From Candidatus Dormiibacterota bacterium (GTDB lineage Bacteria; Chloroflexota; Dormibacteria; Aeolococcales; Bog-877): a stretch of DNA of 64,000 nucleotides. The notes under the pieces are model-generated. The model made no database searches, was not told the origin of the DNA, and saw nothing but the letters and a program-made list of their open reading frames with translations. Shown here piece by piece: positions 48,400 to 51,986 of this stretch. Location of the stretch: the NCBI GenBank assembly GCA_027319585.1, contig DAHVMY010000004.1:1427-65426 (forward strand). The letters run 5' to 3'. The translations under genes and the position numbers were made by a program. Position 1 is the first letter of the stretch; the number at the start of each line of letters is the position of its first letter.

Positions 48400-48625
48400 C
48401 TCCGCTTCCGGGCGGCCTCCGCCGCCGCAGCCGGCGGGGTGGCTTCGTGACTGCAGCGAGCATCGTAAGGGGCGCGAGTTCGCCGCTCCTCGCCCACCCC
48501 CTCGGCCCCCCCGTCGGGCTGAGCCGACCCGACGACCTGAAGGACAGCCCTACCGACTAGACTGGCACACTGTCCTGCGACCGTACCCCTGGCTCGGTCT
48601 CACAGGGGCTCCGGAGGAGATCCGG

Positions 48626-48701
48626 GCCGAGGTAGCTCAGTTGGTAGAGCACGGGTCTGAAAAACCCGGTGTCGGCGGTTCGATCCCGCCCCTCGGCACC
48701 A
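48626..48701 (+). tRNA. tRNA-Phe(GAA)
   Basis: GCCGAGG...CGGGT-CTGAAAA-ACCCG...GTTCGATCC...CCTCGGC-ACCA; 76 nt with encoded CCA. Confidence 0.97.
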
Positions 48702-48748
48702 GTTTTTGATCTCAAAGCGCCCCCCAGACACCGACACCGGCCTGGCGT

Positions 48749-48771
48749 TTGATCCAACCGTTGATCCAACC
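48749..48771 (+). repeat. Tandem TTGATCCAACC repeat (putative integrase arm-type sites)
   Basis: 11-mers at 48749-48759 and 48761-48771, bracketed by CCTGGCGT/ACGCCAGG inverted arms. Confidence 0.5.
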
Positions 48772-48812
48772 CGGGTGGACGCCAGGAGACGTGCGTGGAC
48801 GGTGAGAGCCCC

Positions 48813-49075
48813 TCACCCCTCGGCCAGAGCCGCCTCGATCGCCCCGATCGCGGTTCGCTGCATGGTCTCGGTGGCGTGGGAGTAGGTGTCGAGGGTGGTC
48901 CCGACGGTCGCGTGCCCCAGCATCTCGGACGCGATCTTGGGATGGACACCCGTGCCGAGCGTCACGGTGGCAGCGGTATGTCTCAGATCGTGGAACCTTA
49001 TGGACGGCAGCCCGGCCTGAACCAGCAGGGGATGGAACGAGCGGCGCAGCATGTTCCCTGGATCCAGGGGCTCGG
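48813..49075 (-). pseudogene. Tyrosine integrase C-terminal remnant
   Basis: RFHDLRHTAAT, MLGHATVGTTLDTYSH catalytic motifs; the N-terminal two-thirds is missing. Confidence 0.9.
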
Positions 49076-49077
49076 CC

Positions 49078-49440
49078 AAGGCGAAACTCCTGGTCGTCAC
49101 GAATTGCGCGACGTCCTATGTGGTACAAGACGCCCTCGCCGCCGATGCCGACCGCGGGGTGGCGGTCGACGTTCTTCTCAATCCTCTGGGCTATGGTGCC
49201 AAGGGCGCGGCCTCCTGGCTATCGAACCGTCGAGTTCATGTCCGCTGGGCCCCGGACTCCCCCTACCTCCACGCCAAAGTGATCCTCTCCGCCACCGAAG
49301 GACTTGGCGGGAGTGCCAACCTCAGCTACCACGGGCTGAGCATCAACCGAGAGATGGACGCCATGGCGCCCGCGTCGCTGCTTCCCGCCGCATGGGCCTG
49401 GGGTACTGCCCTCTGGGCCAAGGGGACGCCGGCGGGCTGA
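49078..49440 (+). pseudogene. PLD-like (HKD) nuclease/phospholipase domain, 5'-truncated
   Basis: YLHAKVIL...GGSANLS..G...NRE motif; the 5' end abuts the integrase remnant. Confidence 0.7.
49358..49440 (+). repeat. Direct repeat copy 1 (3' end of PLD-like gene)
   Basis: About 89% identical to 50092-50175 by manual alignment (9 differences in 84 positions). Confidence 0.9.
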
Positions 49441-49451
49441 ACGGCCTGCGC

Positions 49452-49841
49452 CTAGACCTCTACGACCCGCAGAGCAGGAGCGAGGCGGCGCACGTCGGCC
49501 GCGTCCGAGGTTACGACGACATCACCGCGTGCCGTGGCGACCAGTGCGACCTGCCCATCAACCACATCGTACGAGCCCGTCGCCGCCAGTAGCCGGCCGA
49601 CACCGAGAGCTGCCTCGCGATCCAGCGCGGGAACTTGGACGCGACGGTCCCCGATGAGTGCCCCGATCCGGGCCTGACGTGCCCCTCCGCGCCAGGTCTG
49701 GGCGAGCACCCCAGAGGGGATAGCCACCCCTCCTCCGCCCAGCGCCTCGCGCAAGAGCAACGCAACCTCCCGGCGTCCCCGCTCCAGGGCAAGGAGAGCT
49801 CCGCTGTCCAAGGTCAGTCCTCGAGGACGGCCTTGGCCCAC
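49452..49841 (-). CDS. VapC-like PIN-domain toxin
   Basis: TLDSGAL, AQTWRG, DVVDG and VVTSD acidic PIN residues; start uncertain. Confidence 0.85.
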   Translation of the reverse strand: MGQGRPRGLTLDSGALLALERGRREVALLLREALGGGGVAIPSGVLAQTWRGGARQARIGALIGDRRVQVPALDREAALGVGRLLAATGSYDVVDGQVALVATARGDVVVTSDAADVRRLAPALRVVEV

Positions 49842-50044
49842 GCCCGCTCGCTCTCCGTGGCCTCGCCGCCAGTCTCGGCCAGGATCGCATCCACGATGTC
49901 GTCGATGCGATCGTGCTGAGCGCGCTCGGCTACCACTTCGCTGACATAGGAGCTCAGGTTGGCGGCCCTTCCGGCTGCCACTTCGGCTCGTGCTTGGCGA
50001 AGCACGTCCTCAGGCATCGTGATCGTGACCTTCTGCGTTGCCAT
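49814..50044 (-). CDS. RHH-type antitoxin (VapB-like)
   Basis: KVTITMPEDVL...NLSSYVSEVV; overlaps the toxin; TAGGAT 6 nt before the ATG. Confidence 0.85.
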   Translation of the reverse strand: MATQKVTITMPEDVLRQARAEVAAGRAANLSSYVSEVVAERAQHDRIDDIVDAILAETGGEATESERAWAKAVLED

Positions 50045-50091
50045 ACATTTATCCTACCAGGAATCCAGTTCTGGACCGCCCCGCACGCTGC

Positions 50092-50175
50092 ACGCCATGG
50101 TGCCCGCCGCCCTGCTGCCGGCCGCATGGGCGTGGGGGTACTGCCCTCTGGGCCACGGGGACGCCGGCGGGCTGA
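50092..50175 (+). repeat. Direct repeat copy 2 (isolated, frameshifted PLD-like 3' end)
   Basis: Same peptide pattern (AMVPAALLPAAWAWG) with a 1-nt insertion, ending at the equivalent TGA. Confidence 0.9.
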
Positions 50176-50202
50176 GGGGCCAGGAAACTCAGCGGGCCGG
50201 GA

Positions 50203-50838
50203 TCAGCGCTTGAGGCTTCCGGGACCGCGCGGCCCAGTGTGCCTGCCTCGGAAGTTCGGTCCCATCGCCTCTGGCGGCTCTGGCTTATCCACCCCGAGGG
50301 ACTCCCGCTCTGCCGGGAACATCTCTTCGACCAAGAAGCGCGTCTTGGGCAACAGGAGTTCTGGTGGGTACAGACGCTCCACGACCGCGAGGACCTCGTC
50401 TCTCGTCTTGAGATCGAGCAACGTGGCGAGGTGGGCGATGTCTCCCCGGTCCTGCTCGGGCCGCGCAGCCAGCAGCTTCATCCCCAGCAGGAACTCTGGG
50501 GAGGCGGCGGTGACTCGTAGGCCTGGCACGTCAAGCACCTTGTTCGCGCCTGGGTCAGCGCCCGGCACAAAACCCCTGGCCGCGTCGTTGAGCCAGCCAT
50601 GCGGCAGCCGAAGGTCATCGCCGACGATCTGGGCAGCCTTGTAGATCTCGTCAGTCGGTGCGAAGACGGCGTCGATGTCGCGGGTCATCCGATCGGCGTC
50701 ATAAGCAAGGACCATCGCCGCTCCCCCGACCAAGTAAACATCGCCAACCAGCCCTGCCGTGACCAGTTGTGCGCCTAACCGGGTCAAAGCCTCGATTGCT
50801 TGATCCCGGGTTAGGAACCCCGCCCCGCTCGCTGTCAT
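50203..50838 (-). CDS. Nucleotidyltransferase (DUF6036-like), putative toxin
   Basis: LVGGAAM...RMTRDIDA Pol-beta-like motif, GWLND, MKLLAAR..DRGD; ATGA overlap with the HTH gene. Confidence 0.8.
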   Translation of the reverse strand: MTASGAGFLTRDQAIEALTRLGAQLVTAGLVGDVYLVGGAAMVLAYDADRMTRDIDAVFAPTDEIYKAAQIVGDDLRLPHGWLNDAARGFVPGADPGANKVLDVPGLRVTAASPEFLLGMKLLAARPEQDRGDIAHLATLLDLKTRDEVLAVVERLYPPELLLPKTRFLVEEMFPAERESLGVDKPEPPEAMGPNFRGRHTGPRGPGSLKR

Positions 50839-51401
50839 CGCCGCTCCAGTCCCGCAGCTGTTACGAAGATTCCCCGCTTGGCAAAGGACCGAGGACTCTC
50901 GCGCAGGCTCGTGGGGATCCACGCTGGGGCGCCGGCGACGAACCACCAGGGCCGGGCCACGCGATCGGGATCCTGGGCCCAACCTGGGGCCGGGAGACCC
51001 CGCTGGAGGGTCAGGTGTTCCGCCAAGGCGGCCATGAGGGCATCCGTGGCGCTGTCACCGGTTGGGGCTGGCGCGTCAGCCACCACGAGAGCGGTATCGG
51101 CCGGGGTGCCCAGCGCTTCGTCGTCCAGCACCTCCCCCACCAGGCGCCAGGCCGCCGTGCTCCCGTCGGAGCGGCGCACCTCCGCCATAACGGGAGCCAG
51201 GGCTGTCAAGGAAGCCCAGCGGCGCCCTGCGGGCAGGCACGCCTCCACGAGCCGGTTGAACGTCCCCACATTGGGGACCAGCGCCCCAGACTCATACCGG
51301 CTCAAGGTCGCTGACGAAGTCCCCGCGCGGCGCGCGACCTCGCGCTGTGAGAAGCCGGCGCGTGCCCGTACAAATCGGAGCCGAGAGCTTGCGTCCATCA
51401 T
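50835..51401 (-). CDS. XRE-family HTH protein with C-terminal domain, putative antitoxin
   Basis: SQREVARRAGTSSATLSRYESG; C-terminal P.W...PWW...SP.SF..RGIF pattern. Confidence 0.8.
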   Translation of the reverse strand: MMDASSRLRFVRARAGFSQREVARRAGTSSATLSRYESGALVPNVGTFNRLVEACLPAGRRWASLTALAPVMAEVRRSDGSTAAWRLVGEVLDDEALGTPADTALVVADAPAPTGDSATDALMAALAEHLTLQRGLPAPGWAQDPDRVARPWWFVAGAPAWIPTSLRESPRSFAKRGIFVTAAGLERR

Positions 51402-51422
51402 GCTATCGAGAATGATAGCATG
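51399..51422. promoter_or_regulatory. Palindromic operator CATGCTATC-N6-GATAGCATG
   Basis: Perfect 9-bp inverted repeat covering a TATCAT -10-like hexamer and the HTH start codon. Confidence 0.75.
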
Positions 51423-51523
51423 CCCGAAACTCGTCCGATACCACTCAGCGGATCGGGTGCGCCCCTATGCAATCCCGAGCTGAGCTTTAAATCGCCCACT
51501 CCCAACCGCAGAGGGGTGCTCCA

Positions 51524-51745
51524 ATGAACCGTCGCGAACTGGCCAAGACCTTGCAAGCCCAACTGCTCTACGATGGCGACCCCAACGATCCCGTCTTCTC
51601 GAGCTTCAACTTCGCCGATGAGACGCTCCAGCTGATCTTCGGACTGATCAAGCAGAAGCTTGAGGCCGGGGAGGATGTGGCCGTCCGTGGATTCGGCCAG
51701 TGGAGGGTCCGAGAGACTCCGGGCGGAATGAGGCGCAACCCCACC
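51524..51745 (+). pseudogene. HU/IHF-like DNA-binding protein, 3'-truncated
   Basis: MNRREL...GEDVAVRGFGQWRVRE...RRNP, then similarity stops; RBS-like GAGGGG upstream. Confidence 0.7.
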
Positions 51746-51986
51746 CACGAGGGTCTTCCCGGCCGACGCCCGCGCCTCGGCCGCCAGCCCGGTCAGCGCC
51801 AAGGTATCCAACACCAAGGTTTGGCAGGAGCGACGCAGGGCTCCGCCACAGCACGGGCGAGGCCAAGGATCGGTCAGGCCGCCCAAGCGGTCAAGATGGA
51901 GCCAACGATGCCGGACTCTTGATGATCGCGGCGTGACAGCGCCTTGATCGGCCCGGCCGATCGAGCGGGCATGGAGGACGCCGAGG

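Follow-up and report, generated by a model that had tools for sequence, protein, structure and literature searches.

One clade of soil bacteria in the uncultured phylum Dormibacterota has an insertion hotspot that extends from the stop codon of a phospholipase D-like (PLD) gene to the promoter of the HU-like gene next to it. Complete toxin-antitoxin (TA) or defence operons are lodged there behind copies of the PLD gene end. The hotspot was followed up from a stretch of 64,000 nucleotides of a Candidatus Dormiibacterota bacterium (assembly GCA_027319585.1, contig DAHVMY010000004.1, positions 1,427 to 65,426 of the forward strand), called the window below, in which two modules stand behind two copies of the gene end. 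The related loci with which it was compared come from metagenome-assembled genomes (MAGs) of Candidatus Dormiibacterota or Dormibacteria and from metagenome contigs. These sequences show that the terminus of a protein gene can serve such modules as a reusable docking site without a linked integrase. TA and abortive-infection (Abi) modules are highly mobile, and for most of them we know of no vehicle or mechanism. A literature search found no paper combining Dormibacterota with toxin-antitoxin systems, and the locus type appears to be without earlier description in Dormibacterota while resembling known kinds. The loci form a natural series that includes the empty site, single insertions, multi-cassette arrays, a hybrid joint between genomes that are 95% identical, capture beside conjugative elements and a relic, and this series makes the mechanism testable. 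Repeated, decaying gene ends are also a simple signature for defence hotspots in uncultured phyla.

Empty, single and multiple insertions behind the PLD gene

The uninserted state is preserved in L100 and L101, where the order is LexA-like gene, PLD gene, a spacer of 123 nt, HU-like gene and DUF498 gene. Single insertions are present in several relatives. In L064, L066 and L111, a copy of the PLD gene end and a ribbon-helix-helix (RHH)-MazF module lie between the PLD gene and HU. In G025, a truncated PLD gene (PLD') with its end (c1) is followed by a 247-aa gene and HU, and in G002, PLD' and c1 are followed by an AbiEii cassette, a second copy (c2) and HU. The c2 of G002 (~82 nt) runs into the native spacer, as in the empty site of L100, and then into HU; in L111, the right-hand part of a copy and the native PLD-HU spacer stand behind MazF. 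Both c1 and c2 of G002, as well as c1 and the partial copy of L111, align to the single PLD end of L100. Since the displaced end and the native spacer are kept in G002 and L111, the geometry is that of an insertion into the gene end.

Other relatives carry arrays. The largest copy number is that of G003, with four copies and five modules in the order c1, VapC-Phd, c2, toxin-PHD_like, c3, RHH-PIN, c4, RHH-MazF, toxin-AbrB-like and HU. Two copies are present in the arrays of G004:C120 and G027:C43, which hold the PHD_like and RHH-MazF cassettes. HipBA, a copy and RHH-MazF were found in G036, where the copy is partial, and the metagenome contig L065 carries a copy, a vapCB pair that is 88% identical to that of the window, a further copy and a toxin-AbrB-like module. 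G006:C55 contains five modules, including AbiEii and SIR2, with only the first copy present. In G004:C98, the order is HipBA, a copy, MNT-HEPN, an insertion sequence (IS), VapC-Phd and a copy. At the position left of VapC-Phd where a copy is expected, this array (L041 3980-5855) has a 493-aa open reading frame (ORF) without a Pfam match and a DUF6788 gene, which is probably an insertion sequence that destroyed a copy. A partial copy in L044 was set aside, as L044 has N's at that spot and the sequence is complete in the near-identical contig L069.

The cassettes are 0.65-1.7 kb long, and each is one complete TA or Abi operon. At least ten interchangeable TA or defence module types stand behind the PLD end, in different orders. 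The RHH-MazF cassette has the same boundaries and orientation in at least six loci with different neighbours, the AbrB-like/toxin cassette occurs in five loci, and the vapBC-like cassette is shared by the window and L065, in the latter again between two copies and with a different cassette next. For every cassette type, the boundaries and the orientation relative to the copies are constant across occurrences.

A first-pass annotation of the window, made from its sequence alone, had proposed that related elements carry interchangeable TA cassettes right after a conserved PLD gene and that recombination at the gene end stacked them into an array, and had named a single invariant downstream gene in relatives as the observation that would speak against this. 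This interpretation is supported in substance. A single invariant gene is ruled out by relatives with no cassette, one cassette or arrays drawn from at least ten module types. PLD-cassette-HU segments lie beside conjugative-element genes in four genomes, in agreement with the proposal that the cassettes are carried by related elements, and the arrays reach four copies and five modules, with exchanges that break inside the copies.

The repeat unit is the end of the PLD gene

In the window, the repeat is a unit of ~90 nt in two direct copies, delimited in a register aligned with all relatives. Copy 1 (49351-49440, plus strand; 72.9 bits with nhmmer) comprises the in-frame last 29 codons and the TGA of the PLD fragment. 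Copy 2 (50085-50175, plus strand; 58.4 bits) is a displaced, frameshifted and non-coding PLD end. A repeat search of the window returned the blocks 49400-49446 and 50135-50181 at 94% identity and the blocks 49355-49403 and 50089-50137 at 84%, and their spacings of 735 and 734 place a 1-nt indel between the copies. The order of PLD end, vapBC-like pair, copy 2 and nucleotidyltransferase (NTase)/helix-turn-helix (HTH) pair, as first read, was confirmed by ORFs and Pfam. Over the 84 positions that the first-pass annotation had compared, there are 8 substitutions and one G inserted in copy 2 (~50134), which agrees with its count of nine differences, and the four synonymous changes that it named (GCG/GCC, CTT/CTG, CCC/CCG and GCC/GCG) are correct. 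What it had overlooked is the indel among these differences: the extra G frameshifts copy 2, so that two frames are needed to read it and no single frame leads to the TGA at which both copies were said to end.

Five of these differences are synonymous and four are non-synonymous. The proportions are 0.22 for synonymous (pS) and 0.07 for non-synonymous sites (pN), and the dN/dS check that had been suggested for the copies therefore yields a pN/pS of ~0.3, from nine differences only. The two copies are 87% identical overall. Their right halves differ at 3 of 54 positions and have in common the lineage-specific motif GGGGTACTGCCC, whereas 10 of 36 positions differ between their left halves. In its left half, copy 2 shows synonymous states (CTG CCG GCS GCR) of another allele class than copy 1. 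This class is that of the functional gene end in G003, L064 and L109 and was seen in L065 too; the class of copy 1 is found in G025, G002 and G006. The proposal that the copies are diverged coding homologues rather than a fresh target-site duplication is supported by the allele class of the left half of copy 2 and by the third-position variation of gene ends described in the next section.

It had also been considered that the unit might be a generic dispersed repeat. This reading was rejected. In the window's own 2.08-Mb assembly, the unit matches only itself and copy 2 (E 9e-26), the next match being 23 nt long with an E of 0.017. A degenerate 27-mer from the right part of the unit has nine matching stretches in the GTDB representative genomes (596 Gb), all of them in this clade, and six JGI/ENA metagenome contigs contain it as well. 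With a sequence-only covariance model of the unit, 16 of the 44 family genomes have matches at E <= 0.01, and these are strong in ten. The weak matches in G000:C66, G003:C89, G029, G063:C31, G064 and G065 were discarded as chance, with no PLD, HU or integrase gene near them.

Decay of the copies and exchange within them

The copies that form the gene end vary mainly at third codon positions (diversity of 0.146, 0.123 and 0.328 at the first, second and third position). In the downstream copies, this bias is nearly lost (0.194, 0.275 and 0.308), and a frameshift, an indel or a stop is present in six. The downstream copies are relics that are decaying as non-coding DNA. No conserved core was found in them, as the variation is even (left vs right halves, Mann-Whitney p = 0.99). 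The least variable 10-mer in the decaying copies is GGTGCCCGCC, beside the left border (0.17 vs ~0.28). A consensus palindrome, GGGCCT-N6-AGGCCC, was tried as a core and dropped: by reading of the alignment, it is only partly kept in each copy and shows no compensatory change. RNAalifold on 17 copies gave no consensus fold (-4.6 kcal/mol, covariation term +0.5, no supported helix), and a search of Rfam with the unit returned no family. An attC-like or other structured site was rejected on these grounds. No terminator or sigma-70 promoter was found inside the copies.

Exchange within the copies is seen most directly in L109 and G003. These loci are 95% identical across the SSB-PLD-VapC/Phd segment and across HU-DUF498, and L109 is without the two cassettes that lie between c2 and c4 in G003. 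At the joint, it has one hybrid c2/c4 copy, the left part of which is c2-like while the right part goes with the RHH-MazF cassette. The second copy of L065 is also mosaic, with 87% identity to copy 2 of the window in the left 45 nt and 93% identity to a copy in G063 in the right 45 nt, and each half matches at the identity level of the cassette shared on that side (window on the left, G063 on the right). Copy 2 of the window is the third case, with a left part of the other allele class and a right part near-identical to copy 1. All three mappable mosaics switch parent at unit positions ~36-60.

The borders of the copies follow a pattern as well. Six downstream copies, each behind a different left cassette, have clean junctions, and their left ends are confined to ~16 nt (-78 to -95 relative to the stop). 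A second group of left ends lies in the middle of the unit, where the copy behind HipA starts at unit position 34 and only the right-hand part is present behind RHH-MazF. PLD stumps of ~115-380 nt are restricted to loci with an integrase fragment or conjugative-element DNA on the left; none has a TA cassette as its left neighbour. On the right, the window and G025 share the whole copy and 13 nt past the TGA and then differ. In G004:C29, only ~25 nt of the copy are left between MazF and an NTase cassette.

Proposed mechanism

The reading that we consider probable, with some reserve, is that cassettes with a mimic of the gene end were inserted serially in a Campbell-type manner and that the copies later recombined with each other. 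Small self-contained modules (TA pairs, AbiE-type or other NTases, HipBA, MNT/HEPN and SIR2) would enter by a Campbell-type event, in which the incoming cassette, through a mimic of 25-95 nt, undergoes one crossover with the PLD 3' end or with an older copy. Each event would restore a complete PLD end beside the gene and shift the previous end downstream, where it would decay as non-coding DNA, and repeated events would produce arrays in which ends and cassettes alternate. Later recombination inside the copies would remove, add and re-order cassettes. Recombination between two flanking copies would form cassette circles; the circular intermediate and the Campbell geometry are what we infer here. 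The PLD-array-HU segment would have come inside or beside conjugative or integrative elements and have been carried between genomes. The window would represent a late stage of this process, in which a tRNA-Phe island lost the part from its integrase to the middle of the PLD gene in one deletion, and two modules and two copies survived.

Several observations weigh against this course of events. No circular cassette and no single-copy attP-like element was found in the genomes and contigs compared. No recombinase is linked to any array, and the integrase fragments beside PLD' are those of tRNA-type island integrases. Around one third of the cassette-cassette junctions have no copy (four in G006:C55, and the junction of MazF and AbrB-toxin in G003), so either other insertion routes exist or copies are often lost. 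The retained length of the gene end varies, from ~25-45 through 57 to 78-95 nt, and it reaches 115-375 nt next to left neighbours other than TA cassettes. Within an array, the copies share only 70-87% identity, and their short runs of identity make a poor substrate for RecA; downstream copies without a core or structure are poor evidence for a dedicated recombinase. Finally, with all data coming from MAGs and metagenome contigs, some joins could be artefacts of assembly or binning, and two bins contain near-identical arrays, in G004:C120 and G027:C43.

Within the Campbell-type reading, two candidates for the enzyme are almost in balance. The case for homologous recombination of the host acting on short homology falls just short of an even one; it is favoured by the lack of a linked recombinase and of a conserved core, by the variable duplicated lengths and by the scattered breakpoints. 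A site-specific recombinase encoded elsewhere and acting in trans is a serious possibility as well, and it is favoured by the clean junctions, the two clusters of left ends and the three mosaics that switch in the same 25-nt zone. Some other enzyme is improbable.

Alternative explanations

The arrays might instead be the work of a dedicated site-specific system, which we regard as doubtful. An unlinked tyrosine or serine recombinase would read a core within the PLD end, and the cassettes would be cis-mobilisable units with att-like flanks, the circles of which are reinserted at the gene end or at any copy. The borders point in this direction, with six left ends clustered at -78 to -95, clean junctions and a second cluster in the middle of the copy (HipA, RHH-MazF), and against this has to be set that breakpoints also lie elsewhere, at 13 nt past the TGA in the window and G025 and in a remnant in L035 that consists of the last ~25 nt, and that several junctions have no copy at all. 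The three mosaics all switch at unit positions ~36-60, and the 10-mer at the left border is the least variable one; yet the copies have no conserved core, hairpin or covariation. Tyrosine recombinases are abundant (38 of 44 genomes), and accretion of cis-mobilisable elements (CIMEs) at gene 3' ends is established (PMC5704250). The arrays themselves have no integrase in or beside them except 5'-truncated remnants of tRNA-island integrases (window, L033 and L039), and intact homologues of these remnants adjoin tRNA-Phe or tRNA-Ser. No integrase-bearing element bounded by PLD-end copies was found in the 44 family genomes, the GTDB representatives and the unit-carrying JGI contigs, the MAGs being fragmented. 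The integrase fragment of the window was tried as the recombinase of the array and rejected, since the intact homologues belong to tRNA-Phe islands and are not accompanied by PLD copies. A related proposal, put forward here as a speculative one, is that the PLD-end copies are the recombination sites of a non-integron cassette-capture platform. TA and defence circles would carry a linear, unstructured mimic of ~45-90 nt and would be inserted, excised and re-ordered by a preferred crossover at ~36-60. Either a recombinase with its gene elsewhere or a host pathway with no previous link to gene capture would carry this out.

A second alternative is that the cassettes never moved as small units and that the arrays are leftovers of large elements, namely integrative and conjugative elements (ICEs) or islands with a PLD-cassette-HU segment that were inserted in tandem and trimmed by deletion between TA modules. 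It accounts for the long stumps and for the fusion in the window. PLD' stumps of ~115, 150, 190-205 and 370-380 nt lie beside ICE genes or integrase fragments, the integrase'/PLD' fusion of the window is a deletion of exactly this type, with an essential tRNA on one side and a TA module on the other, and tandem accretion at tRNA-Phe is seen in L104. TA modules are described as resisting loss from ICEs (PMC2654960). The explanation is improbable. It predicts random stump lengths, whereas the internal copies are all at most 95 nt long and cluster at 78-95 nt, and it predicts HU or att remnants between the cassettes, where no HU fragment is present. The native PLD-HU spacer directly behind the displaced end in G002 and L111, the identical boundaries of the same cassette in up to six contexts and the comparison of L109 with G003 already point against it.

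A true long target-site duplication, in which staggered breaks and fill-in made both copies from the recipient's own PLD end before they diverged, shares its empty and occupied geometry with the "insertion with long target duplication" of restriction-modification (RM) units without mobility genes (PMC2853133) and would suit the right halves of the window copies with their common motif, but it is very improbable given left halves that differ at 10 of 36 positions, synonymous sites in copy 2 that belong to an allele class functional in G003, L064 and L109, and a pN/pS that is lower than expected with one copy neutral, though on nine differences only.

Comparison with known systems

Insertion with long target duplication concerns RM units without mobility genes between repeats of 30 to >400 bp, often over a gene 3' end, for which there is no known mechanism (PMC2853133). 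Furuta et al. 2010 (PMC2853133) credit the concept to Nobusato et al. 2000. The locus shares with these cases an addiction or defence module without a mobility gene between direct repeats of >30 bp. The repeats have one counterpart in the uninserted site of a relative, frequently reach into the 3' end of an adjacent gene and vary in length between events. In the terms of Furuta et al. 2010, the insert is a complete addiction module of <20 kb with no mobility gene, and the >30-bp repeats are single-copy in the uninserted genome (G002 and L111 against L100). Unlike those cases, the cargo here consists of type II or IV TA and Abi modules in place of RM units, and a single site has taken up one insertion after another, to a maximum of four copies and five modules. 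The copies are diverged and mosaic rather than near-identical, with cassettes re-ordered between genomes. If the enzyme is host recombination on 25-95 nt of homology, this would explain insertion with long target duplication, a question open since 2000. If it is dedicated, the locus would be a new cassette platform.

CIMEs are decayed elements flanked by copies of the target gene end, and their tandem accretion has been documented for ICESt1/CIME at fda of Streptococcus thermophilus (PMC5704250). The arrays resemble them in that units without integration or transfer genes are bounded by gene-end copies, with the complete end beside the gene and older ends displaced, and also in tandem stacking and ICE association. 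Direct gene-end copies flank the units in the window, G003 (c1-c4), G002, G004, G027, L065 and L109, the copy at the gene end is in frame, and L100 and L101 provide the empty site. They differ from CIMEs in that neither a cognate integrase nor an ICE with the PLD end as its att site was found here. The units are also only 0.65-1.7 kb long with one TA or defence operon each, and precise boundaries that recur in many orders are not expected from random decay of large elements.

Substitution of a protein-gene end is familiar from phage 21 and e14 in icd of E. coli. The element brings a substitute gene 3' end, which differs mainly at synonymous sites, and the displaced icd end stays as a pseudogene fragment at the far side. 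The substitute end and the displaced host end have their counterparts in the present locus. Those elements, in contrast, are prophages that encode an integrase and are inserted singly, whereas here many small cassettes are present and no integrase.

The arrays had also been called integron-like. Like a chromosomal integron with TA cassettes, they have small and mostly TA cassettes, a repeated site of ~60-130 nt, a fixed entry point and variable content. Unlike the sites of integrons, the repeats are linear, directly oriented stretches of coding sequence. No intI was found beside the array, where only 5'-truncated tRNA-island integrases are near; the 17 copies folded have no attC-type imperfect hairpin with R and L boxes; and the cassettes are not promoterless and co-oriented, being complete two-gene operons with their own antitoxin or regulator in both orientations. 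The layout of a cassette array is thus the part of the comparison that holds, and without IntI, attC-type hairpin and common cassette orientation it is an analogy only.

Mobile-element context

In the window, the locus adjoins a tRNA-Phe(GAA) gene at 48626-48701 (plus strand; ARAGORN, Rfam tRNA 72 bits), the attachment gene of a decayed island. It is followed by the C-terminal fragment of a tyrosine integrase at 48813-49071 (minus strand), ~86 codons long, which matches Pfam Phage_integrase at profile positions 110-170 of 172. Window positions 48624-49071 have 94.9% nucleotide identity to the full-length integrase of G007:C89, and in G007:C89 and G025:C83, the intact integrase adjoins the same tRNA-Phe. 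The integrase homology ends exactly at 49071, and the homology to the PLD gene of G003 begins at 49072, so a single clean deletion has fused the two genes head to head. The resulting 5'-truncated PLD gene (49072-49440, plus strand) retains the second HKD domain only (Pfam PLDc_2), with 91% amino-acid identity to residues 220-341 of the 341-aa G003 protein, and its ORF (49051-49440) takes its ATG from the junction sequence. With its PLD 3' fragment joined to what is left of a tRNA-Phe island integrase, the locus is the relic of a decayed island. The informative states, which are probably younger, lie in its relatives.

The distal flank is truncated as well. The conserved promoter region and the first 74 codons of the HU-like gene lie at 51463-51745 (plus strand; Pfam Bac_DNA_binding; annotated ORF 51524-51922). 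In a tblastn search with the G003 protein, the window matches over residues 1-74 only, and beyond them the ORF continues as unrelated, Arg/Pro/Gly-rich sequence, which shows that the hotspot has lost part of this flank too. The region upstream of HU aligns in all loci from ~20 nt ahead of CCCTATRMAATCCC. A gene of the xanthine dehydrogenase (XDH) family follows downstream, and the window genome, a MAG that is 86% complete, is without the DUF498 gene and a 368-aa gene of the conserved neighbourhood, which would fit an arrival of the PLD'-array-HU' segment as island cargo. A metagenome contig, L104, is 99.7% identical to the window and has the same order of integrase', PLD', vapBC, copy, NTase/HTH, HU' and XDH. 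It departs from the window at 48657, inside tRNA-Phe, and its left side (L104 1-2300) has ORFs of 451 and 76 aa; the divergence inside the tRNA indicates that a further element was added in tandem there in a sister population. No attR was found for the tRNA-Phe island, as the window holds no second tRNA 3' end with <=3 mismatches.

Related loci are linked to mobile elements in several ways. The PLD stump stands behind a TrwC relaxase gene in G025 and G006:C55, ~15 kb from a tRNA-Ser with its integrase, and behind a type IV coupling protein (T4CP)/CHAP gene in G002, and a VirB4-like ATPase is encoded ~9 kb upstream in G003. Head-to-head integrase'/PLD' fusions with three different breakpoint pairs were found in the window, G006:C212 and G003:C11. 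In our reading, large parts of element backbones were deleted independently in each case, up to the addictive cassettes. The fusions besides that of the window, with their other breakpoints, are located at L033 2524-3003 and L039 6397-6757, and in L039 an IS3-like transposase gene is next. No repeat of >=15 nt that could serve as attR was detected for the tRNA-Ser elements of G025 and G006, and the 5' part of the PLD gene was not found beyond the adjacent ICE DNA on the G025, G006 and G002 contigs. The family genomes are small (~2-3 Mb) and densely populated by integrative elements, some intact and others decayed. Of the 44, 38 have homologues of the integrase fragment, with up to 15 matches per genome and many short open frames.

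The PLD protein and its surroundings

At its N-terminus, the full PLD protein of G003 (341 aa) carries a hydrophobic stretch with a lipobox-like LVAGC at its end; two PLDc_2 domains are also present. The family is small: a set of 5.8 billion proteins contains 19 clusters of it at E <= 1e-20. The repeat corresponds to the C-terminal tail, which belongs to the protein itself and is kept in the orthologues of G020 and G062 (~56-75% identity to the G003 protein or gene). In the window, the PLD gene of the first-pass annotation has a PLDc_2 domain and a real gene end, and it comprises only the last 122 codons of the two-domain protein. The label of nuclease is a putative one: the closest named relatives are DrmC, NucT and cardiolipin synthases, all of them far under the cut-offs, and the full protein is a lipoprotein-type two-HKD PLD. 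The truncated genes of the window (49051-49440) and G025 (L030 7469-7864) start within 12 nt of each other and have different left neighbours. Compared with each other, they have a pN/pS of 0.14 at a pS of 0.23, and both keep the whole second HKD domain and a new start codon. They may thus be functional single-HKD proteins rather than pseudogenes.

A conserved block precedes the PLD gene in relatives. It consists of a 366-aa gene, a 158-aa gene, in some cases a DnaE-type polymerase gene, a single-stranded DNA-binding protein (SSB) gene and the LexA-like gene (L100 700-9800; L103 80-3800; L029 11600-13960). The polymerase is intact in L100, is represented by PHP-domain fragments in L102 and L103 and is absent in G003, and the block looks like a decaying LexA-linked polymerase cassette. 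Larger defence cargo stands behind the gene in PLD loci that are more distant. In G062 (L043 4760-11400), an AAA ATPase, a nucleotidyltransferase and a type I HsdM are encoded behind the PLD gene in DNA of lower GC content. L102 (2814-12814) has a tRNA-Thr in this position, then a SNF2 helicase and an MmeI-like enzyme. By these gene orders, the region behind the PLD gene is variable well outside the repeat-bearing clade.

Cassettes of the window

Cassette 1 (49452-50044, minus strand) is a vapBC-like pair recognised from its ORFs, weak Pfam hits and gene organisation. Its antitoxin-like gene (49814-50044, minus strand; 76 aa) has only a weak match to DUF6364, and NCBIfam gave no hit for the pair. 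The PIN-like toxin gene (49452-49841, minus strand; 129 aa), which overlaps it, matches Pfam PIN with an E of 0.0047 and 18 bits, under the cut-off of 23.6 bits, so that the assignment as vapBC-like stands on these hits together with the gene organisation. Cassette 2 (50203-51401, minus strand) is an HTH_31 and NTase pair with an ATGA overlap, and both genes have Pfam matches above the cut-offs. The HTH_31 regulator or antitoxin (50835-51401, minus strand) scores 44.9 bits (cut-off 27), and the DUF6036/AbiEii-like nucleotidyltransferase (50203-50841, minus strand) scores 26.8 bits for DUF6036 (cut-off 23.6) and 26.6 bits for AbiEii (cut-off 22.5). The same pair stands behind the remnant copy in G004:C29. 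It is present in 16 of the 44 family genomes, mostly far from any PLD copy or integrase, which indicates that the modules are drawn from a wider pool. A 22-nt palindrome with one central mismatch, ATGCTATCGAGAATGATAGCAT, was observed at 51402-51422; it starts at the first base of the HTH start codon, extends upstream and is a likely operator of the HTH/DUF6036 nucleotidyltransferase pair.

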